Below, piece after piece: positions 1 through 19,327 of a stretch of DNA of 32,000 bases. Position 1 is the stretch's first letter; each line of letters starts with the position of its first letter. The stretch is from Gaiellaceae bacterium. Lineage in GTDB: Bacteria; Actinomycetota; Thermoleophilia; Gaiellales; Gaiellaceae. The position numbers and the translations under genes were made by a program. The notes under the pieces were generated by a model. It made no database searches. It was not told where the DNA came from and was given only the letters and a program-made list of their open reading frames with translations. The stretch lies in the NCBI GenBank assembly GCA_035640455.1, contig DASQWB010000183.1:5510-37509 (forward strand), given 5' to 3'.

Positions 1-1133
1 ACGGCAAGAGCGACCCGTACACGCTGGGCGTGGAGGAGGAGTACATGCTCCTCGACGGCGAGACCTTCGACCTCGTCCAGCACGTGGACACGGTGCTCGC
101 GGCCACGTCCGGCCATGAGCTCGAGTCGCGCATCAACCCGGAGCTGATGCAGTCGGTGCTCGAGATCGCGACGCCGGTGTGCCATACGGCGGCCGACGTC
201 GAGCTCGAGCTGCGGAAGCTCCGCGGCTACGTCTGTGACCTCGCGCGGGAACGTGGGATGCGTGTCGGCTCGGCCGGGACGCACCCGTTCTCGCTCTTCG
301 AGCGCCAGCGGATCACGGCGCGCGACCGCTACCGGAACCTCGTCGACCAGATGCAGTACGTCGCCCGGCGAGAGCTGATCTTCGGCATGCACGTCCACGT
401 CGCCGTCGACGATCCCGAGAAGGCGATCCAGGTCGTGAACGGGCTGCTCGTCCACGTCCCGCTGCTGCTCGCGCTGTCGGCGAACTCGCCCTTCTGGCGC
501 GGCGAGCCGACCGGGCTCTCGTCGAGCCGGCAGATGGTGTTCGCCGCCTTCCCGCGCTCCGGGCCGCCGCCGCGCTTCGCCGACTACGGCGAGTACGCGG
601 AGGTCGTCGGCCAGCTCGAGAAGACCGGCTGCATCGCGGACTACACGCACATCTGGTGGGACATCCGTCTGCACCCGCGGCTCGGGACGATCGAGATCCG
701 CATCTGCGACGCGGTGACGCGGGTCGAGGAGGCGGTCGCCCTGACCGCCTACTGCCAGGCCCTCGTAAAGCACTTCTGCGAGCGGTACGAGCGCGGCGAG
801 GAGATCCCGTCGTACCACCGGATCCTGACCACCGAGAACAAGTGGCTCGCCGCCCGCTACGGGCTCGAGGCGCCCGTGATGGACCTCGCCACCGGCCGGC
901 GGAACCGCGTCTCGGTGGCGCAGCTCGTGCGGCGGACGCTGCGGGAGCTCGAGCCGCACGCGCGGGAGCTCGGCTCCGAGCGCGAGCTCGAGGGTGTGAA
1001 GGAAATCCTCTCACGCGGCAACGGCGCCGACCGCCAGCTGCGGATCTTCAACGCGAACCGCGACATCGTGGAGGTCGTCAGCGAGATCGCGGACGCGACG
1101 GAAGTTGCCGCCGTGCCTGTCTCAGCCCACTAG
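1..1133 (+). CDS. ybdK: carboxylate-amine ligase, YbdK / glutamate-cysteine ligase family 2 (5' end cut by window edge)
   Basis: The frame is open from nt 3 (GKSDPYTLGVEEEYMLLD), so the true start lies upstream of the window. The full-length match to the GCS2 pattern includes LGVEEEY, INPELMQSVLEI.TP, GTHPF, HVHV, SANSPFW and WWDIRLHP..GTIEIRICD. Stop is TAG at 1131-1133. Confidence 0.85.
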   Translation, partial: GKSDPYTLGVEEEYMLLDGETFDLVQHVDTVLAATSGHELESRINPELMQSVLEIATPVCHTAADVELELRKLRGYVCDLARERGMRVGSAGTHPFSLFERQRITARDRYRNLVDQMQYVARRELIFGMHVHVAVDDPEKAIQVVNGLLVHVPLLLALSANSPFWRGEPTGLSSSRQMVFAAFPRSGPPPRFADYGEYAEVVGQLEKTGCIADYTHIWWDIRLHPRLGTIEIRICDAVTRVEEAVALTAYCQALVKHFCERYERGEEIPSYHRILTTENKWLAARYGLEAPVMDLATGRRNRVSVAQLVRRTLRELEPHARELGSERELEGVKEILSRGNGADRQLRIFNANRDIVEVVSEIADATEVAAVPVSAH

Positions 1134-1850: not shown

Positions 1851-2393
1851 ATGGCCGCGAGCCGGCACGAGCGCGCCTGGGTCCGAGGCGCCCGGGCCGG
1901 CTCCGCCGCGGACGTCGAGGCGCTCTTCAAGCACCACTGGCCGCTCGCCTACCGCGCCGCCTACCTCGTCGTCCACGACGCCGCGGCCGCGGAGGACATC
2001 GCGCAGGAGGCCTTCCTCGCCGCCCTGCGCGCCCTCGACCGCTTCGACCGCCGCCGGCCGTTCGGGCCGTGGCTGCACCGGATCGTCGTCAACCGGGCGA
2101 TCGACTGGGCCCGCGCCCGCGCGCTGCGGGCCGAGGTCTCCGACGACGGGACGCTCGAACGGGCCGCCGCGCGCGAGCGTCCGCGCGAGGGGGACACCGA
2201 CGCGCGGGCGCTCGCGGGCGGCCTCCGCCGGCTGTCGCCGGAGCACCGGGCCGTGATCGTCCTCCGCCACCTGCTCGAGTACACGCCGGGCGAGATCGCC
2301 GAGCTCCTCGAGCTGCCGCGCGGAACAGTCAACTCGCGGCTGCGGCGGGGCCTCGACGAGCTGCGCGAGACGATCGGCGAGGAGCTCCGATGA
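1851..2393 (+). CDS. ECF (extracytoplasmic function) RNA polymerase sigma-70 family factor
   Basis: Region 2 reads DIAQEAFLAALRALDRFDRRRPFGPWLHRIVVNRAIDWAR. Region 4 HTH reads LSPEHRAVIVLRHLLEYTPGEIAELLELPRGTVNSRLRRGLDELR. The ATG at 1851 is the first start after the divergent promoter region. The stop overlaps the next start as ATGA. Confidence 0.9.
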   Translation: MAASRHERAWVRGARAGSAADVEALFKHHWPLAYRAAYLVVHDAAAAEDIAQEAFLAALRALDRFDRRRPFGPWLHRIVVNRAIDWARARALRAEVSDDGTLERAAARERPREGDTDARALAGGLRRLSPEHRAVIVLRHLLEYTPGEIAELLELPRGTVNSRLRRGLDELRETIGEELR

Positions 2394-3526
2394 GGCTCCG
2401 CACCCTCCTCCGCGAGCTTCCGCTCCCGAACGAGGACGAGGCAGCGCGGCGCAGCCTCGCCGTCGTCCGTGCCGCATTCGCCGCCCGGGAGCCCGTCCAG
2501 CGTCGGCGGGCGTACCTCAAGCCTGCGCTCGCGATCGCGGTCGTGGCCGCGCTCGTCGCCGCCGCCCTCAGCCCGCCCGGCCGCGCCGTCCTCGGCTCGC
2601 TGCGGAAGACGGTCGCGGGCGAGAAGCGCGTCGTCGCGACCGAGCTCTTCGCCCTCCCGACCGGCGGCCGCCTGCTCGTGAACTCCCCGCGCGGCCCGTG
2701 GATCGTGCAGCCGAACGGCTCGCGGCGGCTGCTCGGGCGCTACCGCGACGCGGCCTGGTCGCCGCACGGCCTCTACGTCGTCGCGACGCGGGCGAACGAG
2801 GTGGTCGCCGTCGATCCGAAGGGCGTCGTCAAGTGGACGCTGCCGCGGCGGCAGGTCCGCTTCGCCCGCTGGGGCGGCAGCCGCGTCGACACGCGCGTCG
2901 CCTACCTCAGCGGCTCGCGGCTCCACATGGTCGCCGGTGACGGGACGGGCGACGTCGATCTCTGCGGCGAGCCGCCCGCGGCGCGGATCGCGCCGGCATG
3001 GCAACCGACCCCGGTTCGCGTCGTCGCCTACGCCGACGCGCGCGGCCGGGTGTCGGTCATCGACGCCGACACGTGCTCGCTGGCGTGGCGCTCGCCGCCC
3101 TTCCCGGAGCCGCGGGCGCTCCGCTGGTCGGACGACGGCCGCCGCCTGCTCCTCGTCACGCGCGACAAGCTCGCCGTCTTCGGGCTCAGCCGCGGCACGC
3201 CCCTCGCCGTGCGCTGGATGCGCGGCGTCACGGACGCGGCCTTCGCCCCGCGCAGCCACGAGCTCGCGCTCGTCCGCCGCGGCGAGGTGCTCGCGCTGAG
3301 TGCCGATCGCCTGCGCGCGACGCCGCGCCGGCTCTTCCGCCTCACCGGCCGGATCGGCCAGATCGCTTGGTCGCCGAACGGTCGCTGGCTGCTCGTGACA
3401 TGGCCCGACGCCGACCAGTTCCTCTTCGTCCGCGGCCGGCACATCCGCGCGGTCTCGGGCATCTCGCGCCAGTTCGGCGGCGGCGCGTTCCCGTCGATCG
3501 GCGGCTGGTGCTGCACCTCGTCCTAG
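2390..3526 (+). CDS. single-pass membrane protein, probable anti-sigma factor with extracytoplasmic beta-propeller (PD40/TolB-like) domain
   Basis: ATG 2390 overlaps the sigma stop (ATGA). A short cytoplasmic N-terminus is followed by a TM helix (LKPALAIAVVAALVAAAL). Repeated WSPHGLYVVA / WSDDGRRLLLV / WSPNGRWLLV blades follow. The position right after an ECF sigma gene is typical of anti-sigma factors, but no zinc HxxxCxxC motif was seen. Confidence 0.6.
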   Translation: MRLRTLLRELPLPNEDEAARRSLAVVRAAFAAREPVQRRRAYLKPALAIAVVAALVAAALSPPGRAVLGSLRKTVAGEKRVVATELFALPTGGRLLVNSPRGPWIVQPNGSRRLLGRYRDAAWSPHGLYVVATRANEVVAVDPKGVVKWTLPRRQVRFARWGGSRVDTRVAYLSGSRLHMVAGDGTGDVDLCGEPPAARIAPAWQPTPVRVVAYADARGRVSVIDADTCSLAWRSPPFPEPRALRWSDDGRRLLLVTRDKLAVFGLSRGTPLAVRWMRGVTDAAFAPRSHELALVRRGEVLALSADRLRATPRRLFRLTGRIGQIAWSPNGRWLLVTWPDADQFLFVRGRHIRAVSGISRQFGGGAFPSIGGWCCTSS

Positions 3527-5124
3527 CCGCGGCGCTCGCGCTCGGCGGGCACTCCGCCGCCGCGCATCCGTTCTCGGCGCACGGGATCTCGGGCGCCCTC
3601 CCACCCGGCTGGCGCGTCCTGCACCGGCGCTTCACGCCCTGCACCGACCCGCAGGAGGTGCTCGCGGTCTCGTCGTTCCCGGTTGCGAAGCGCGCGCGGA
3701 TGGACCCGCACGGCGCCTTCCTGCTCCTCGAGGAGCGGCACGGCTCGACCGACGGGCTGCCGCCGCGGCCGGCGCGCTTCTCGCTCGCCGACCCTCCGCA
3801 GGCGCTCACCTGCTGCGAGCCCTTCGCCGGCGCTCCCGGCTGGAGCGTGCGCTTCCAGGCCGCCGGTCGCGGCTTCTATGGGTACGCGTACGTCGGAGCG
3901 AACGCGAGCTCGCGACTGCGTGGCGAGCTCCTCGGGGTCCTCGACGGCCTCCGCTTCGCCGACCACCGGTCGCGCTCGCTCGGCCTGCCGTGGGCGGGCC
4001 GGCTGGTCGGCGGCGTCCAGCTCCCGGCGGCCGGGCGGCACTTCTTCACCTGGGACCCGGTCCTGCGCCGGAAGCCCGATCGCGACTGGCGGCGCTACGG
4101 GAATGCGCGCGTCGTCCGGACGGTCCTGCGCGTCGTCGACGCCTACGCGGCCTCACACCCGCACGCGGCGCGGCTCGGGATCGGCGACCTGAGCCGACCG
4201 CACGGCGGTGACTTCGGCCCGCGGTTCGGCGGGCTCGGGCACGTCTCGCACCAGAACGGGCTCGACGTGGACGTCTACTACCCGCGCCGCGACGGTCGCG
4301 AGGCGGCGCCGACGCGCCCAGCGCAGATCGACCACGCCCTGGCGCAGGATCTCGTCGACCGCTTCGTCCGGGCCGGCGCGGTGCGCGTCTTCGTCGGCCC
4401 CTCGACCGGGCTGACCGGCCCGCGCCGCGTCGTCTCCGTTCTCGCGCACCACGACAACCACCTGCACGCGCGCTTCGCCGTCCGGTCGGTTCGGCGGACC
4501 GTCTTCCTCGGCCGCTCCGTCCGCGGCGTCCCGATCTCGGCGCTCGAGCGCGGCGACCCAGGGAGCTCGCGGAAGGTGCTCGTCGTCGGCTGCATCCACG
4601 GCAACGAGTGCGCGGGGCTCGCGGTCGTCCGGCTCCTGGCCCGGGCGCGCTTGCGCGGCGACGTCGACCTCTGGCTCCTGCCGAACCTCAACCCCGACGG
4701 CTACGCGGCCGGCACGCGGCAGAACGCGCACGGCGTCGACCTCAACCGCAACTTCCCCGCGATGTGGAAGCGGACCGGCCGGCGCGGGAGCCTCCAGTGG
4801 TCGGGGCCGCGGCCGCTCTCGGAGCCCGAGTCGCAGATCGCCCGCCGGCTGATCCTCCGGCTGCGGCCCGCGCTGACGCTCTGGTTCCACCAGCCGCAGG
4901 CGCTCGTCCGCGCCTGGGGGCCGAGCATCCCCGCGGCGCGACGCTACGCCCGGCTCGCCGGCGTGCCCTTTCGCGCCCTCGCCTGGCCGAACGGGACGGT
5001 CTCGAACTGGCAGAACCACCTCGATCCGCGCGCCGCGTCGTTCGTCGTCGAGCTGCCGGGCGGGCCGCTCACGCCCTCCGCGGCGAAGCCTTACGCCGAC
5101 GCCCTGCTCCGCCTGGCGCAGTAG
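3508..5124 (+). CDS. secreted multidomain peptidoglycan peptidase: unknown N-domain + LAS/M74 MepA-like endopeptidase + M14 MpaA-like carboxypeptidase/amidase
   Basis: A signal-like sequence (M)LHLVLAAALALGGHSAAA starts at GTG 3508. LAS zinc motifs are HVSHQNGLDVD (4240-4272) and HHDNHLH (4447-4467). M14 motifs are HGNE (4597-4608), LPNLNPDG and VDLNRNF. The start is uncertain; CTG 3505 and ATG 3400 are alternatives. Confidence 0.8.
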   Translation: MLHLVLAAALALGGHSAAAHPFSAHGISGALPPGWRVLHRRFTPCTDPQEVLAVSSFPVAKRARMDPHGAFLLLEERHGSTDGLPPRPARFSLADPPQALTCCEPFAGAPGWSVRFQAAGRGFYGYAYVGANASSRLRGELLGVLDGLRFADHRSRSLGLPWAGRLVGGVQLPAAGRHFFTWDPVLRRKPDRDWRRYGNARVVRTVLRVVDAYAASHPHAARLGIGDLSRPHGGDFGPRFGGLGHVSHQNGLDVDVYYPRRDGREAAPTRPAQIDHALAQDLVDRFVRAGAVRVFVGPSTGLTGPRRVVSVLAHHDNHLHARFAVRSVRRTVFLGRSVRGVPISALERGDPGSSRKVLVVGCIHGNECAGLAVVRLLARARLRGDVDLWLLPNLNPDGYAAGTRQNAHGVDLNRNFPAMWKRTGRRGSLQWSGPRPLSEPESQIARRLILRLRPALTLWFHQPQALVRAWGPSIPAARRYARLAGVPFRALAWPNGTVSNWQNHLDPRAASFVVELPGGPLTPSAAKPYADALLRLAQ

Positions 5125-5133
5125 GGTCCCGCC

Positions 5134-5592
5134 ATGCTGCAGGCAGGCGACCGCGTGCCGGAGGCAACGGTGTGGCTCGCGCCGCGCGAGCCGCTCACCA
5201 TCGGTGAGCTCGCCGCCGACGTGCCGATCCTCCTTTTCTTCTACCTCTTCGACTGGTCGTCGACCTGAACGAACGAGATGGAGCTCCTGCGTGACAGGAG
5301 CGAGCAGTTCGCGGAGGCGGGCGTCCACCCATATGGCATCTCCCGCGACTCGCCGTGGACGCACATCGCGTGGATGCAGGCGCTCGACCTGAACTTCCCG
5401 CTCCTCTCGGACTGGAACGCCGAGGCGGTGCAGGCCTTCGGGATCGCGCACGAGTTCCGCGGCATGCACGACGTCGCCGAGCGGACGGCGTTCCTCGTCG
5501 ACCCCGGCGGTACGGTCCGCCGCGCATGGAGCTACGGGACGGACCAGGTGCCCGACTTCGACGAGCTGCTCGCGGCCGCGCAGCCTACGTAG
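5134..5592 (+). CDS. AhpE-like 1-Cys peroxiredoxin with in-frame UGA (probable selenocysteine) at the peroxidatic position
   Basis: Translation from ATG 5134 gives MLQAGDRVPEATVWLAPREPLTIGELAADVPILLFFYLFDWSST-[TGA 5266-5268]-TNEMELLRDRSEQF.... This continues in the same frame into the 5278..5592 ORF. Remembered against M. tuberculosis AhpE (VLLVFFPLAFTGICQGELDQLRD), the TGA sits exactly where the catalytic Cys is. Downstream Prx blocks are present (FPLLSDW, and the conserved Arg in ERTAFLVDPGG). There is no Cys anywhere in the 152-codon product. Confidence 0.65.
5270..5311 (+). other. SECIS-like two-part RNA stem-loop immediately 3' of the in-frame UGA
   Basis: The lower stem is CGAAC (5270-5274) paired with GTTCG (5307-5311). 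The upper stem is GCTCCTG (5283-5289) paired with CAGGAGC (5295-5301). The 5-nt apical loop CGUGA (5290-5294) contains GU and begins 21 nt after the UGA. This geometry is comparable to bacterial SECIS elements. Confidence 0.5.
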
Positions 5593-7142
5593 CGCTCGCC
5601 TGCGCCCTCTACCTCGGAGCCGGCGTCGCGGCGACGTGGCCGGCCGTCCAACACGCGGGCTCGGAGTTCATGGCCGGCGGAGCTCCCGGTCACGGCGAGG
5701 CGGCGCCGGGCGACCACCTGCAGACGCTCTACCACCTCTGGCTCGTCGGCCACCAGCTCGACCACGGCCACGCGCCCTGGCGCGACCCGTACAGCTTCCG
5801 GCCCGAGGCGAAGCCGACGCTCAACTTCGCCGGCTGGCCGCTCGGGTTCGCGTTCTGGCCTTTGGACGCGGCATTGGGCGCCGTTCGCGGCTGGAACGCC
5901 TTCGTGCTCTTGACGTACCTCGGCGCCGGCGGGCTCGCCTGCCTCTGGCTCCGCGAGCTCGGGCTGCCGCGGGGGGCGGCGCTCGCGGGCGGCCTCGCGT
6001 TCGCGATCGCGCCTTACCGCGTGGGGCAGAGCGTCGGCCACCTGCTTGGGCCGATCTCGATCCTGCTCCCGCTCGCGCTCTACGCGCTCGAGCGGCGGTG
6101 GCTCGTCGTCGCGGTCGCTGCCGTCGTCTCGATTCCCCTGTCGGGTCAGGTGCACCTGGCCCTGGGAGCCGTGCCCTTCTTCTGCGCGTACGCCCTCGTC
6201 CGGCGCCGGGATCTGCGGACGTGGGTGACCGTGGAAGCGGCCGTCGCTTTGGCGGTCGCCGCGGGCTTCCTCGTCAAGACGACGACGATCGACCGCTCGC
6301 ACCTGGCAGGAGGACGGTCGCTGCACGCCGTCTCGCAGTACTCCGCCGGCTGGGGCGACTTCGTCGACCGCCACAAGGGCCATCAGGCCGAGCAGTTCGT
6401 GTTCCTCGGCTGGGCCACGCCCGTGCTGGCCGTGGTCGGGCTCGTGCTGCTGTGGCGCGGGAGGCGCGGCCTGGCGGCGGTGCTCGGCCTCGGCGCCGTC
6501 GTGCCGATCCTGCTCGCGCTGGGGACATCGACGCCGCTCTACTCGGGCCTGTGGCACGCGCTGCCGCCGTTCCGCTACCCACGAGTGCCGGAGCGGCTCA
6601 TGCCGATCGCGTGCCTCTGCCTCGCGGGGCTCGTTGCGTTCGCCGTCGCGCGTTCGCGGCGCGCGGTCGTCGTGCCGGCGTTGGCGGTCGCGCTGCTCCT
6701 CGTCGACCTGCACGTGCGGGTCTACGGCGCGTCGGCTGCGGACGCGGGCAATCGCGCCTATGCGGCGCTCCGCGAGGCGCCGCCCGGCCGCATGCTCGAG
6801 CTGCCGGTCTTCATGCCCGACCTCCACTACGGGAGCGTCTACATGTACTACGACATGCAGGCGCGGCGCGAGCGGCCGGCCGGGTACTCCACCATTGCGC
6901 CGCGGGCCGCGTACGACCTCCTGCGGACGCTGCTGCCCGTGAACTGCGGCCGCTTCGACGCCGCGCAGCTCGCGACGCTTCGCCGGCTCGGCGTCCGCTA
7001 CGTCGCCGTCCACCGCGCGCTCTTCCGCTACCGGCGGGTCGAGGGCCAGCCGTGCACGCCGCCGCCCGCGCGACGGCTTCGCTCGTTCCGTGTGCTCGCG
7101 TCGGACGGCGAGGTCACGATCTTCGACCTCGCCGCGTTCTAG
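5526..7142 (+). CDS. polytopic integral membrane protein, possible GT-C-type glycosyl/arabinosyl-transferase-like protein
   Basis: At least 10 hydrophobic segments are visible. The first extracytoplasmic loop carries GDHLQTLYHLWLVGHQL, and a soluble C-terminal domain follows. ATG 5526 gives a positively charged N-terminus before TM1 but overlaps the Prx gene by 67 nt. The family assignment is weak. Confidence 0.65.
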   Translation: MELRDGPGARLRRAARGRAAYVALACALYLGAGVAATWPAVQHAGSEFMAGGAPGHGEAAPGDHLQTLYHLWLVGHQLDHGHAPWRDPYSFRPEAKPTLNFAGWPLGFAFWPLDAALGAVRGWNAFVLLTYLGAGGLACLWLRELGLPRGAALAGGLAFAIAPYRVGQSVGHLLGPISILLPLALYALERRWLVVAVAAVVSIPLSGQVHLALGAVPFFCAYALVRRRDLRTWVTVEAAVALAVAAGFLVKTTTIDRSHLAGGRSLHAVSQYSAGWGDFVDRHKGHQAEQFVFLGWATPVLAVVGLVLLWRGRRGLAAVLGLGAVVPILLALGTSTPLYSGLWHALPPFRYPRVPERLMPIACLCLAGLVAFAVARSRRAVVVPALAVALLLVDLHVRVYGASAADAGNRAYAALREAPPGRMLELPVFMPDLHYGSVYMYYDMQARRERPAGYSTIAPRAAYDLLRTLLPVNCGRFDAAQLATLRRLGVRYVAVHRALFRYRRVEGQPCTPPPARRLRSFRVLASDGEVTIFDLAAF

Positions 7143-12081: not shown

Positions 12082-13017
12082 CTAGTAGTCGAACTTAAGG
12101 CGGCCGCTGATCTCTCTGACGGTCGCCTCGTGCTGGCGACGGGCCTCGACTTGCCGCTCGCCCTGCGCGCGAAGCCGACGCTCGTGCTCGGCAATCTCCT
12201 CGTTCACCTTCTCGAGCACGTACCGCAGCGTCTCGACGTGATAGCGCTCAAGCTCCTCCATCGTGGTGCCGTCGAGGATGATGGTGTCGCCAGAGACAGA
12301 GGCAATGCCGGGGCGGTGCATCGTCGTCCATCGCGGCGGGTGATTCCATGTTTCGACGAAGCGCCGCGCCCAAAGCGGGTGGGGTCGTCGCGAGAGCCGC
12401 AGCGGGATGCGGTACAGGGCGCTTCCTGCGCTTCCGTCATTCCGCGGTTGACCCACACCCTCCTCCACGATGCCCGTGATCCTGATGGGCTCGTAGTCAG
12501 CCGTGAGAGGCGCAGATGCGGCTGGCGGCAGCGTGGATGTACCGGACGATGGTCGCCTCGCCGCTCGCTCCGCTTCCCGGCGCTTCGCCGCGCGCTCCCG
12601 CTGCTCAGCCTGGTGCTGGGGGATCGCGGCGGCGATCTTGTCCGCGACCTCATCGATGTTCGCCTCGTCCAGCGAGAGGTAGAGCACATCGGCCAGTGCG
12701 TCGGGCATCTCGGCACCGGCAACGCGAACGGGAAGCACCCGCACGCCCTCGCGGCCCAGCTCACCGGTGACGGCGAGCGCGAGTTCCTTCCGACACCAGT
12801 TCGACTTCCGCGATGCCTCGCTGACCAGAGCGAGGAAGAAATCGATTTCGGCGATTGCCGTCGCGATTCGCTCGATGAGGGAGTCTCCGACTTTGAGCTC
12901 GCCCTCATCGATCCAGACGCGGAGGCCGCGAGCGTCGAGCGCTGCAGCGAGCGCACGGGCGAGATCCTTGTCCTCGTGGGAGTAGGAGATGAAGATCGAG
13001 GCCTGTGAACCGGTCAC
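12082..13017 (-). CDS. TIR-domain protein (N-terminal TIR, predicted NADase) fused to an uncharacterised C-terminal domain
   Basis: The sequence (M)TGSQASIFISYSHEDKDLARALAAALDARGLRVWIDEGELKVGDSLIERIATAIAEIDFFLALVSEASRKSNWCRKELALAV is a canonical bacterial TIR pattern. It includes the conserved WCxxE glutamate (E78, codon 12784-12786). A charged/Pro-Ala linker spans aa 131-172. The C-terminal domain (aa 173-311) has a terminal coiled-coil-like stretch, and no family was recognised. The start is GTG. GC is markedly lower than in the flanks. Confidence 0.85.
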   Translation of the reverse strand: MTGSQASIFISYSHEDKDLARALAAALDARGLRVWIDEGELKVGDSLIERIATAIAEIDFFLALVSEASRKSNWCRKELALAVTGELGREGVRVLPVRVAGAEMPDALADVLYLSLDEANIDEVADKIAAAIPQHQAEQRERAAKRREAERAARRPSSGTSTLPPAASAPLTADYEPIRITGIVEEGVGQPRNDGSAGSALYRIPLRLSRRPHPLWARRFVETWNHPPRWTTMHRPGIASVSGDTIILDGTTMEELERYHVETLRYVLEKVNEEIAEHERRLRAQGERQVEARRQHEATVREISGRLKFDY

Positions 13018-17265: not shown

Positions 17266-18038
17266 CCGAGCAGCGAGTCGCCGTCGTCACCGGCGCCTCG
17301 AGCGGGATCGGCGCCGCGATCGCCCGCGCGCTCGCCGCGCGCGGCGACCTCTGCGTCCTCCTCGCCCGGCGCGAGGATCGGCTGCGCGCGCTCGCCGAGG
17401 AGCTCGGCGGCGAGTACGAGCTCTGCGACGTCGCCGACCGTGAGGCCGTGGAGCGAGCAGCGGCAGCGGTTCGCGAGCGGCATCCGCGGATCGCCGTTCT
17501 CGTCTGCAACGCCGGCATCCCGGGGCGGTACGGCTTCCTCGACATCGAGCCCGAGCGCCTCGTCCAGCTCGTCCGGACGAACTACCTCGGCGGCGTCTGG
17601 TGCCTGCGCGCCTTCCGCCCCGCGCTCGAGGCCGCGGGCGGCGCCGACGTCGTGAACGTCGTCTCCGTCGCGGGCGGAGTCGCGTTCCCGCCCTCCGGGC
17701 CCTACTCTGCGTCGAAGCACGCGCAGCTCGCGTTCTCGCGCGCGACGGCCGCCGAGCTGCGGCCGCGCGGCATCCGCGTGCACACGATCAATCCCGGCTT
17801 CGTCGAGACCGAGGGGTTCCCGCAGCGAACAGTGCTGCGCGGCCGCCTGCTGCGGCGGGCGGTGATCGAGCCGGAGGACGTGGCGCGCCACGTGCTGCGC
17901 TCGCTCGAGCGCGGACGGGGCGAGACGTACGTGCCCGCCTGGTACCGCGTCTTCCCGCTTCTCCAGGCCCTCGCGCCCGGGGTCGTCGGCCGGCTCGCCG
18001 GACGCTCTGGCTATCGCTCGCGCGCCGCGTCAAACTAG
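17262..18038 (+). CDS. short-chain dehydrogenase/reductase (SDR) family oxidoreductase; start codon unresolved
   Basis: Motifs are VAVVTGASSGIGAAIARAL (TGxxxGxG), NAG, and the catalytic YSASK. No ATG, GTG or TTG occurs between 17025 and the Rossmann motif. The coordinates given use CTG 17262, which overlaps the protease TGA (CTGA). CTG 17256 and ATG 17025 are alternatives. Confidence 0.8.
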   Translation: MTEQRVAVVTGASSGIGAAIARALAARGDLCVLLARREDRLRALAEELGGEYELCDVADREAVERAAAAVRERHPRIAVLVCNAGIPGRYGFLDIEPERLVQLVRTNYLGGVWCLRAFRPALEAAGGADVVNVVSVAGGVAFPPSGPYSASKHAQLAFSRATAAELRPRGIRVHTINPGFVETEGFPQRTVLRGRLLRRAVIEPEDVARHVLRSLERGRGETYVPAWYRVFPLLQALAPGVVGRLAGRSGYRSRAASN

Positions 18039-18043
18039 GTCCG

Positions 18044-18451
18044 ATGAGCGAGCAGCTGAGCGCACAGGCTGCGATGCGAGGCGCGGAGTTCCGTGCTGCC
18101 CTCCGCCGCTTCCTCCGGCGGAGCGAGCGCGTTGCCCGCGCGTCAGGGCTCACGCCGCAGCGGTACCTCCTCCTGCTGATGATCAAGGGCGCGCCCGACG
18201 GCTCGGAGCAATCGACGGTCACCGAGCTCGCGGAGCGCCTCCAGCTCGCGCAGAGCACGGTCACCGAGCTCGTCAGCCGTGCCGAGGAGGTGGGCCTCGT
18301 CGAGCGGGAGCCGTCGCCGGCCGACGGCCGCGTCGCGCACCTCCGGCTCACCGAGGAGGGCGAGCGACGCCTCGCGCGGTCGTTCGCGACCATGGCGGCG
18401 GAGCGCGAGCAGCTCCGGGCGGTGTTCGCGCACCTGGACGAGTCGTCGTAA
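18044..18451 (+). CDS. MarR-family transcriptional regulator
   Basis: The sequence LTPQRYLLLLMIKGAPDGSEQSTVTELAERLQLAQSTVTELVSRAEEVGLVEREPSPADGRVAHLRLTEEGERRL is a MarR winged HTH. Confidence 0.9.
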   Translation: MSEQLSAQAAMRGAEFRAALRRFLRRSERVARASGLTPQRYLLLLMIKGAPDGSEQSTVTELAERLQLAQSTVTELVSRAEEVGLVEREPSPADGRVAHLRLTEEGERRLARSFATMAAEREQLRAVFAHLDESS

Positions 18452-18491: not shown

Positions 18492-18812
18492 GTGGAGCCG
18501 CAGCGGCGAGCACCGAAGGTCGAGTTCCTCTACTGGGAAGGCTGCCCTTCCCACCCCGAGGCGCTCGAGCTGCTCCAGGAGGTGTTGGCGGCCCGGGGGA
18601 TCGACGCGCGCGTGGAGCTCCGCGAGGTGACGAGCCAAGGGGAGGCGGAGGCGCTTCGCTTCCCCGGCTCGCCGACGATCAGGGTCGACGGGCACGACAT
18701 CGACCCGGCCGGCGCGGACGCGCGACCGGCGCTCAACTGCCGCATCTACCACCTCCCAGACGGCACCGTCTCGCCCGTGCCGACACGCGAGCAGCTCGAG
18801 GAGGCGCTCTGA
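18492..18812 (+). CDS. small thioredoxin-fold-like protein (single CPSH motif)
   Basis: The sequence reads (M)EPQRRAPKVEFLYWEGCPSHPEALELLQEVLAARGID..VELREV...AEALRFPGSPTIRVDGHDI. This is the typical layout of small Cys-containing alpha/beta proteins often annotated as thioredoxin family. The start is GTG at 18492, and the stop overlaps the next ATG (TGATG). The exact family was not recognised. Confidence 0.55.
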   Translation: MEPQRRAPKVEFLYWEGCPSHPEALELLQEVLAARGIDARVELREVTSQGEAEALRFPGSPTIRVDGHDIDPAGADARPALNCRIYHLPDGTVSPVPTREQLEEAL

Positions 18813-19327
18813 TGACCACCGCTCCGCAGTTCGACCTCGAGGGCGTCGACGGCCAGCGGCATTCCCTCGACGACTACGCCGACGCCGACGTGCTCGTCCT
18901 GATCCAGTCCTGCAACCACTGTCCGTACGTCCAAGCGTGGGAGGACCGGATGAGCGCGATCCAGCGCGACTACGGCGACCGCGGCGTGCGGCTCGTCGCC
19001 GTCAACTCGAACGACGCCGACGCCTACCCGGAGGACTCGTTCGAGGAGATGCGCTCACGGGCGGAGCGCCGCGGCTTTGCGTTCGACTACCTCTACGACC
19101 CCTCGCAGGGCATCGCGCGGGCGCTCGACGCCGAGCGCACGCCCGAGGTCTTCCTCTTCGACCGCGACCGCCGGCTGCGTTACCACGGCGCGATCGACGA
19201 CTCGCGCAACGAGCAGGCGGTGACCCAGCACTACCTGCGCGCCGCGCTCGACGCCGTGCTCTCGGGGAGCGAGCCTCCGGTGGCGGAGACGATGCCGGTC
19301 GGCTGCACCGTCAAGTGGCGTCGGTAG
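18812..19327 (+). CDS. thioredoxin-fold thiol-disulfide oxidoreductase (AhpC/TSA-redoxin family, CNHCP motif)
   Basis: The sequence FDLEGVDGQRHSLDDYADADVLVLIQSCNHCPYVQAW...GVRLVAVNSND...RTPEVFLFDRDRRLRYHGAIDD is a TlpA/redoxin-like pattern with a CxxC centre. Confidence 0.85.
   Translation: MTTAPQFDLEGVDGQRHSLDDYADADVLVLIQSCNHCPYVQAWEDRMSAIQRDYGDRGVRLVAVNSNDADAYPEDSFEEMRSRAERRGFAFDYLYDPSQGIARALDAERTPEVFLFDRDRRLRYHGAIDDSRNEQAVTQHYLRAALDAVLSGSEPPVAETMPVGCTVKWRR

Follow-up and report, generated by a model that had tools for sequence, protein, structure and literature searches.

The stretch of DNA analysed here (hereafter the window: 32,000 nucleotides [nt] from a Gaiellaceae bacterium, contig DASQWB010000183.1 of assembly GCA_035640455.1) carries on its forward strand, at positions 5134 to 5592, a peroxiredoxin (Prx) gene whose codon 45 is an in-frame TGA (5266-5268). 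With that codon counted as sense, the gene has 152 sense codons and ends at TAG (5590-5592). An earlier note, made from the letters of the window, had read this frame as 44 codons from ATG 5134, a TGA, the residues TNE and then the only piece present in the list of open reading frames (ORFs), a fragment of 104 amino acids (aa) at 5278-5592; translation confirms each of these statements. The 44 upstream codons translate as MLQAGDRVPEATVWLAPREPLTIGELAADVPILLFFYLFDWSST (ending ...ILLFFYLFDWSST), and the joined 152-aa product contains no Cys at all, also as the note had claimed. Fourteen nt 3' of the TGA, on the same strand, lies a hairpin (5283-5301) that resembles a bacterial selenocysteine insertion sequence (SECIS) element. 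We consider it highly probable that the locus encodes a small BCP/AhpE-like selenoperoxiredoxin, in which the UGA at the position of the peroxidatic Cys (Cp) is read as selenocysteine (Sec) with the help of this hairpin, and in which Sec is the sole redox residue.

TGA is not reassigned: it terminates five of the 12 well-supported genes of the window, where it is otherwise an ordinary stop. In public resources the peroxiredoxin gene appears in pieces. Eight of the ten window proteins have letter-for-letter public entries (HYZ79528.1 to HYZ79555.1), and the entry for this gene, HYZ79528.1, is the 104-aa fragment (5278-5592, forward strand), named 'redoxin domain-containing protein'. The JGI and ENA gene calls give a separate 44-aa ORF that ends at the TGA (5134-5268, forward strand; 44 codons plus the TGA), directly followed by the 104-aa ORF; the 44-aa ORF (genes 9857-9991 in L167 and L168) has no Pfam match. 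In a protein search the full-length matches reach at most 73% identity, while database clusters with a length of exactly 104 aa, at least 14 in number, are 81-93% identical; U or X occurs in none of the matches. Seven 'full-length' entries (P0013, P0022, P0032, P0041, P0048, P0108 and P0113) have Trp at this column and one (P0083) has Gly, and these look like TGA forms translated by metagenome gene callers under genetic code 4 or 25. The gene is mis-annotated in every public resource sampled (NCBI, JGI and ENA), so that the earlier expectation that standard callers would miss or truncate it is now documented (104 aa in NCBI, 44 plus 104 aa in JGI and ENA). Because the gene is split, truncated or mistranslated in these resources, catalogues of soil Actinomycetota would undercount selenoproteins.

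Active site and fold of the joined product

The 152-aa product, searched with a placeholder Cys at the TGA, matches Pfam AhpC-TSA (PF00578) over residues 5-130 (E value 3.8e-25; 88.7 bits, cutoff 26), which correspond to positions 2-123 of the 124 in the profile, and it also matches Redoxin (2.9e-13). The placeholder, residue 45, aligns with the Cp of Aeropyrum pernix BCP (2cx3) and with Cys45 of Mycobacterium tuberculosis AhpE (BLASTP, 32% identity over 133 aa; the AhpE query sequence is identical to PDB 1xxu_A), which places the TGA exactly on the peroxidatic Cys of AhpE, where the earlier note had put it. The conserved Arg, that of the motif AERTAF, lines up with its counterpart in 2cx3 and does not vary across the family alignment (R117). 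Among the 128 unique complete genes with TGA at the catalytic column (hereafter Sec forms; relatives with a Cys codon at that column are called Cys forms), all have Ser or Thr at position -3 and U at Cp, and 115 contain no Cys at all. The N-terminus, MLxxGDxxP, is kept in all homologues. An AlphaFold (AF2) model of P0014, a Cys-form homologue of the same length and 65% identity, has a mean predicted local distance difference test score of 96 and a predicted template modelling (TM) score of 0.91; in it residue 45 lies in the first turn of helix 43-61 (helix alpha2). This model matches Sulfolobus solfataricus Bcp4 (3hjp; TM scores 0.93/0.89, root mean square deviation 1.6 A) and AhpE (1xxu; 0.89/0.88), with M. 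tuberculosis BcpB near.

We assign the product with fair confidence to the small BCP/AhpE-like peroxiredoxins, where 'AhpE-like' denotes size, 1-Cys character and fold, and where the subfamily is not secure. The label AhpE-like, which the note had used, thus stands for these three features, but by sequence the BCP/PrxQ group scores higher (7.7e-20 for 2cx3 against 7.8e-11 for 1xxu) and by structure it scores at least as high. AhpE (Rv2238c) is of the same length class (153 aa), has no resolving Cys and shares the helix motif E-x-x-x-LRD; it differs in using Cys and in keeping a motif Pro that is Leu in the present protein. The archaeal BCP/PrxQ proteins give the best matches by sequence (2cx3) and by structure (3hjp), but they are Cys enzymes, several of them with a resolving Cys, and identity is only about 29-35%. 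PrxU of Peptoclostridium (Eubacterium) acidaminophilum (NF040737), a thioredoxin-dependent enzyme, has the same U at the peroxidatic position; it is, however, a longer protein of AhpC/Prx1 type from an anaerobic Firmicute. We considered and rejected orthology with PrxU, given that NF040737 scores 35.4 bits against a cutoff of 270 and matches only in the core of its 233-position model. None of the NCBIfam equivalogs reaches its cutoff, and the family has no dedicated NCBIfam model.

Conservation of the TGA and of the reading frame

A scan of genomes, with one genome per species, returned 68 loci, 67 of them from metagenome-assembled genomes (MAGs) labelled Gaiellaceae, Gaiellales, Thermoleophilia, Actinomycetota or 'uncultured Actinomycetes' (43-83% aa identity). 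In each of the 67 the catalytic column holds an in-frame stop, and every time it is TGA; the lone exception in the scan is a distant Haloarcula match with Cys. A scan of metagenomes seeded with a Cys-form protein returned 80 loci, with TGA in 77 and TGC in three. When homologues are aligned at the TGA column, as the earlier note had suggested, the column thus holds TGA in all 145 stop-containing sequences (the window, 67 genomes and 77 metagenome contigs), never TAA or TAG, and the Cys codon (TGC) of the Cys forms aligns with it. The homologues align end to end with the 152-codon gene, and the Cys forms are continuous proteins of 152-160 aa.

Viewed alone, a lone in-frame stop in an otherwise intact gene looks like a TGC-to-TGA nonsense pseudogene or an assembly or sequencing error. 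We give this explanation almost no credence, as the TGA recurs in 145 sequences from independent samples and assemblies, including two that cover the gene of the window. (The DNA of the window is also found at about 660-706 kb of a JGI contig of 817,703 bp and on ENA soil-metagenome contigs, at 99.5-100% identity, and both independent assemblies that cover the gene in this population carry the TGA.) No further stops or disabling mutations occur in the coding frame of the TGA forms. For the 128 unique complete genes, the ratio of nonsynonymous to synonymous substitution rates (dN/dS) is 0.45 before the UGA, where dS is 0.68, and 0.32 well after it, where dS is 0.64. Because these ratios are reached at a dS of about 0.65, we conclude from the alignment that both flanks are translated in one frame and are under purifying selection, near synonymous saturation.

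The same observations bear on the proposal that the TGA is a true stop, which would leave a 44-aa peptide and/or an internally started 104-aa fragment (Met 5278) with some non-catalytic role. NCBI, JGI and ENA annotate the locus in this way and an ATG is indeed present at 5278 in the window, but we regard the proposal as very improbable. The internal start is not conserved (in the genome set the codon is Met in 41 of 68 sequences and Leu in 25, and it is Val in some relatives); neither the active site nor the first beta-strands would be part of the 104-aa fragment; across 128 genes the 44 upstream codons keep their frame, at the dN/dS given above; the stop is always TGA; and the Cys forms run through without interruption. 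Furthermore, the freezing of nucleotides described below is limited to the hairpin and is not predicted by a model of termination or re-initiation. The earlier note had itself named a nonsense pseudogene, a sequencing error and internal initiation at Met 5278 as ways in which it could be wrong; on the strength of the 145 TGA sequences, of purifying selection on both sides and of the poorly conserved Met, these alternatives are effectively excluded.

The hairpin 3' of the TGA

In the minimum free energy (MFE) fold of 5260-5320 the hairpin (GCUCCUG-CGUGA-CAGGAGC) has an upper stem of 7 bp, 5283-5289 paired with 5295-5301, and an apical loop CGUGA at 5290-5294, the second base of which is G. The gap between the UGA and this loop is 21 nt, and the fold therefore upholds what the note had said of the loop, its distance and its SECIS-type geometry. 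The two-part stem-loop that the note had described holds in part: the fold contains both stems and the upper one is conserved, but the lower one (5270-5311, forward strand; 5270-5274 pairing with 5307-5311) is not demonstrably conserved and does no better than shuffled sequences. It is paired in 87% of cells, a value reached by 36 of 500 shuffles; at each of its pairs 12-22 of 118 sequences are unpaired, and it is absent from the RNAalifold consensus. Across these 118 distinct homologous sequences the whole upper stem is paired in 95.9% of cells and the five apical pairs in 98-100%. Changes in the apical pairs are limited to U-A to U-G (eight sequences) and C-G to U-G (one sequence), and at base pair 18-36 the G-C is swapped to C-G twice and the pair is open in 26 cases. 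The unbiased RNAalifold consensus keeps only the loop and a 5-bp core, 5285-5289 with 5295-5299, which is the universally conserved part of the hairpin.

Bacterial SECIS criteria, as used in bSECISearch, place the apical loop about 16-37 nt after the UGA, with a G among the first loop bases. The hairpin of the window, with its 7-bp stem and its 5-nt loop CGUGA 21 nt after the UGA, agrees with these criteria, and its geometry is consistent with the bacterial SECIS consensus. In the SelB-recognised SECIS of E. coli fdhF, a stem-loop in the coding region directly follows the UGA, and its apical loop, which contains G/U, lies a short, fixed distance away; the present hairpin has the same placement, but its sequence is different, it has no obvious bulged U, and its conserved part is a 5-bp stem with a 5-nt loop. 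A G in the SECIS loop is stated as a bacterial feature in the literature (PMC1794560).

At the nucleotide level the hairpin is close to frozen. Codons U+6 to U+10 read CTC CTG CGT GAC AGG in 126-128 of the 128 unique genes, with a codon entropy of 0-0.12 bit, compared with 0.9-1.65 bit at other conserved fourfold- or sixfold-degenerate residues of the same gene, and the synonymous difference (pS) is 0.023 in the hairpin codons against 0.43-0.45 elsewhere in the gene, a drop of about 20-fold. The two Arg codons concerned are fixed (CGT in 126 of 128 genes, AGG in 128 of 128) despite making up only 8.8% and 2.0%, respectively, of the Arg codons of the source genome, and it is from these codons that the U of the loop and the 3' side of the stem derive. 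In 1.71 Mb there are 140 copies of the 13-nt core CCTGCGTGACAGG, each placed 20 nt after a TGA, and none anywhere else. The only amino-acid change inside the hairpin loop of the TGA form is found in a rare loop variant, CGUGG (L087 3133-3192 and L088 2121-2180), which encodes LLRGR for LLRDR and folds into an 8-bp stem with a 3-nt loop at -13.4 kcal/mol.

The Cys-form relatives provide a built-in control. Among seven distinct Cys-form genes, CGT is used in none and AGG in one; they encode the same or a similar peptide with ordinary codons (CGC, CGG, CGA; GAT), and the peptide itself, LLRDR, which is invariant in Sec forms apart from the loop variant just mentioned, varies in Cys forms (LLGER, VLRDK, LFRDR, LLQDR and others). 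The folding energy of the 19-nt element is -1.2 to -4.0 kcal/mol in five of the seven, compared with -10.2 +/- 1.3 kcal/mol in 142 Sec forms; the other two are L153, described below, and L155, where the fold is in a different register. Because the Cys forms use ordinary codons and let the peptide vary, the freezing is, as far as these alignments go, specific to the TGA forms and acts on synonymous positions. The Cys form L153 (the codons after TGC in L153 and L154 were examined at 1133-1180) still has the whole 7-bp stem (-10.8 kcal/mol) and the Leu-type active-site motif, and its loop reads CGCGA in place of CGUGA; it has the appearance of a recent conversion from Sec to Cys. In L069 and L151 the rare codons AGA AGC survive as a relic. 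The SECIS relics in these three loci suggest recent conversions from Sec to Cys. In a case of this kind, frozen synonymous sites would identify a SECIS element even where compensatory covariation is lacking.

The frozen nucleotides could in principle reflect a constraint other than a SECIS element (a requirement of the protein for LLRDR, a regulatory RNA or an antisense feature), with the TGA a coincidence. ELLRDR is in fact common in Cys forms and AhpE has ELDQLRD, and there are no compensatory changes that would prove pairing of the stem. Nevertheless we think such a constraint very unlikely to be the explanation, because what is frozen is frozen at synonymous positions and in the TGA forms only, because the rare codons CGT and AGG have become fixed at just the places that give rise to the U of the loop and the 3' arm, and because the changes that are observed, either G-U wobbles or a G-C to C-G swap, keep the pairing.

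Probable selenocysteine decoding and genomic context

Taken together, the conserved TGA, the purifying selection on both flanks, the frozen hairpin codons and the loss of this constraint in Cys forms give strong support to the reading of the UGA as Sec. We infer the following scheme for insertion, SelB binding and catalysis. During translation the hairpin at 5283-5301 would act as a bacterial SECIS element and recruit SelB-GTP-Sec-tRNASec to the ribosome, so that the UGA would be read as Sec and not as a stop. The selenolate would lie in the first turn of helix alpha2 and, helped by the conserved Arg and the conserved Ser at -3, would attack peroxides and thereby be converted to a selenenic acid, which an external thiol partner would recycle; an external partner would be needed because the protein is without Cys.

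Several results weigh against this reading. The single-sequence fold is marginal (z = -1.96, with 11 of 200 shuffles folding as well), and the sequence of the window taken alone is suggestive, not conclusive. RNAalifold finds no sign of compensatory change in the hairpin, its covariation term being about 0 over 118 sequences; the term is so low because the hairpin hardly varies, and we therefore set covariation aside as proof of the stem, since it is uninformative for a near-invariant element. No Rfam SECIS model matches, either in the window at gathering thresholds or in 5100-5650 at E <= 10, although we expect these models to be specific to other lineages. In the active-site motif PxxxT/SxxC, the Pro (position -7; 5245-5247) is replaced by Leu (FYLFDW) in 126 of 128 Sec forms. 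We asked whether this replacement is coupled to Sec and rejected the idea: Leu is also present in 34 Cys-form clusters, so that on this alignment the change from Pro to Leu is a feature of the clade and does not track Sec; the Pro is kept in more distant Cys forms (FYPFDW). Finally, two negative results concern the decoding machinery. Searches of the window, of roughly 52 kb of unbroken sequence around the gene and of 1.47 Mb of homologous loci gave no selA, selB, selD or tRNA-Sec, with ARAGORN and Rfam applied to the window, ARAGORN to all peroxiredoxin loci, and tblastn of E. coli and then Thermoleophilia SelA, SelB and SelD to the 1.47 Mb. (There is no tRNA and no Rfam family in the window, and sel genes are absent from the 10 kb beyond its right end and the approximately 4.7 kb beyond its left end.) No SelB labelled Gaiellaceae, and none on a peroxiredoxin contig, was returned by three ranked searches (one from Miltoncostaea, one with a profile of the most distant cluster, and one exhaustive search of representatives with cluster look-up), but these searches were saturated by other families and their outcome is absence of evidence only.

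Elsewhere in the class the machinery is present. SelB proteins are labelled Miltoncostaeaceae, Thermoleophilaceae (eight names), Baekduia sp. and 'Thermoleophilia bacterium'. Miltoncostaea oceani, a cultured member of the Thermoleophilia, carries selD-selA-selB followed by tRNA-Sec (ARAGORN; Rfam 61.7 bits against a gathering threshold of 47) at L157 12001-16247 (NZ_CP064357.1), on an 815-kb replicon deposited as a plasmid; the peroxiredoxin is not on that replicon. High-GC soil contigs carry selA-selB or selD-selA-selB. The Sec trait therefore exists, on the evidence of these gene clusters, in the class Thermoleophilia, with sel genes and tRNA-Sec found only in families other than Gaiellaceae. 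Three SelB contigs present only in NCBI (WGS prefixes CAZVNM, JANMDN and WBZQ) are not among the peroxiredoxin MAGs. We also tried to use the GCS2 genes (see below) linked to sel genes to place contigs in the Gaiellales, and rejected this placement because they are only about 48% identical, compared with 69-96% in the set linked to the peroxiredoxin.

Two side observations were made on these sel loci. The PLSDB gene table omits the tRNA-Sec gene of M. oceani. A ZMP/ZTP riboswitch (51-57 bits, gathering threshold 39; L158 6157-6254, L160 6278-6367, L162 8244-8342 (-)) on each of three high-GC soil contigs precedes a serine hydroxymethyltransferase gene that is divergent from, and next to, selA-selB.

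These results bear most directly on the proposal that the UGA is read through without Sec, by a near-cognate tRNA (for Trp, Cys or Arg), by some factor acting with the hairpin, or by recoding that does not involve SelA and SelB, so that residue 45 would be something other than Sec. The proposal draws on the absence of sel genes from the sequence searched around the gene and from the homologous loci, on the lack of a SelB labelled Gaiellaceae in the ranked searches and on the lack of a match between the hairpin and a curated SECIS family. We nonetheless judge it improbable. The codon lies on the catalytic Cys of a protein with no other Cys, where only Sec or Cys keeps activity; Trp or Arg at Cp would abolish peroxidase chemistry, and yet the whole protein is under purifying selection. 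Interchange of Cys and TGA at a single column is the classical signature of a selenoprotein (PMC1794560), the geometry of the hairpin fits a SECIS element, and Sec machinery is widespread in sister families. A bolder form of the proposal, namely that Gaiellaceae decode UGA without canonical SelA, SelB and tRNA-Sec, and that the 5-bp stem with its CGUGA loop is the signal for another recoding factor, seems to us similarly far-fetched. A milder version is that this peroxiredoxin, rather than FdhA or SelD, might keep the Sec trait alive in an abundant and presumably aerobic soil order; if it did, the oxidative-stress defence of the lineage would be tied to soil selenium. We looked for a second selenoprotein gene in the neighbourhoods of the peroxiredoxin and found none: in about 1.5 Mb of loci this is the sole in-frame TGA that recurs and is flanked by coding signal upstream and downstream.

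Peroxiredoxins with a T/SxxU/C active site are an established family of bacterial selenoproteins, with 12 proteins counted in 2006 (Zhang et al. 2006, PMC1794560) and 91, from 78 organisms, in 2016 (Peng et al. 2016, PMC5029168). The present protein resembles that family in its AhpC/TSA fold, in having Sec for the peroxidatic Cys in S-x-x-U and in the SECIS-like hairpin, with its loop G, just downstream. It also shares the coexistence of Sec and Cys forms in related organisms, here with remnant SECIS structures in L153, L069 and L151; for other families, the literature describes both the interchange of Sec and Cys and remnants of SECIS-like structures in Cys forms. On these likenesses we take the locus to be a well-supported new member of the established Sec-peroxiredoxin family, and no new kind of system. 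It differs in that its SECIS-like hairpin is unusually invariant, across about 145 sequences, and in where it occurs: published Sec forms, Prx included, are associated with anaerobes, whereas the present sequences come largely from soil metagenomes and MAGs. A Sec-Prx conserved in a common soil lineage would be mildly at odds with the published trend. No relevant paper linking selenocysteine with Gaiellaceae/Gaiellales or Thermoleophilia was found in the literature searched. The Sec form is present across at least 67 species-level genomes of Thermoleophilia, mostly labelled Gaiellaceae or Gaiellales, and on many soil metagenome contigs; members of a very common soil lineage would accordingly depend on selenium for a peroxide-detoxifying enzyme, and the finding should be useful both for annotation and for soil selenium biology.

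The peroxiredoxin gene is preceded on the forward strand by genes for an extracytoplasmic function (ECF; SigE-family) sigma factor (1851-2393), a 378-aa protein without family match (2390-3526), possibly an anti-sigma factor, and a fused M74/M14 peptidase (3508-5124). Because only 9 nt separate the stop of the peptidase gene from ATG 5134, the peroxiredoxin may be co-transcribed with this envelope-stress module. Farther upstream, and cut by the left end of the window, is a gene for a YbdK-type carboxylate-amine/glutamate-cysteine ligase (GCS2; 1-1133, forward strand), which in full encodes 401 aa (L168 4651-5856) and matches Pfam GCS2 at 7.9e-59 and NCBIfam NF010039 at 416 bits against a cutoff of 371. 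In 58 loci a gene 69-96% identical to it lies no more than 10 kb from the peroxiredoxin gene, and in the Cys-form loci L153-L156 the two are immediate neighbours. The association hints at a low-molecular-weight thiol as the reductant, and we offer it as a lead, not as evidence.

Two further observations concern genes downstream. A second, unrelated AhpC/TSA-Redoxin gene (18812-19327, forward strand; 171 aa; 'thioredoxin family protein' in NCBI) lies 13 kb from the first and adjoins a gene for a MarR-type regulator (17600-18451). On the reverse strand, at 12082-13017, is a gene for a TIR-domain protein (TIR_2, 3.3e-28, with weak ThsB-like and Pycsar-effector-like matches); it is flanked by genes for an ArsR/MarR-type regulator and an enoyl-ACP reductase, and on the basis of its domain matches it may be related to defence.

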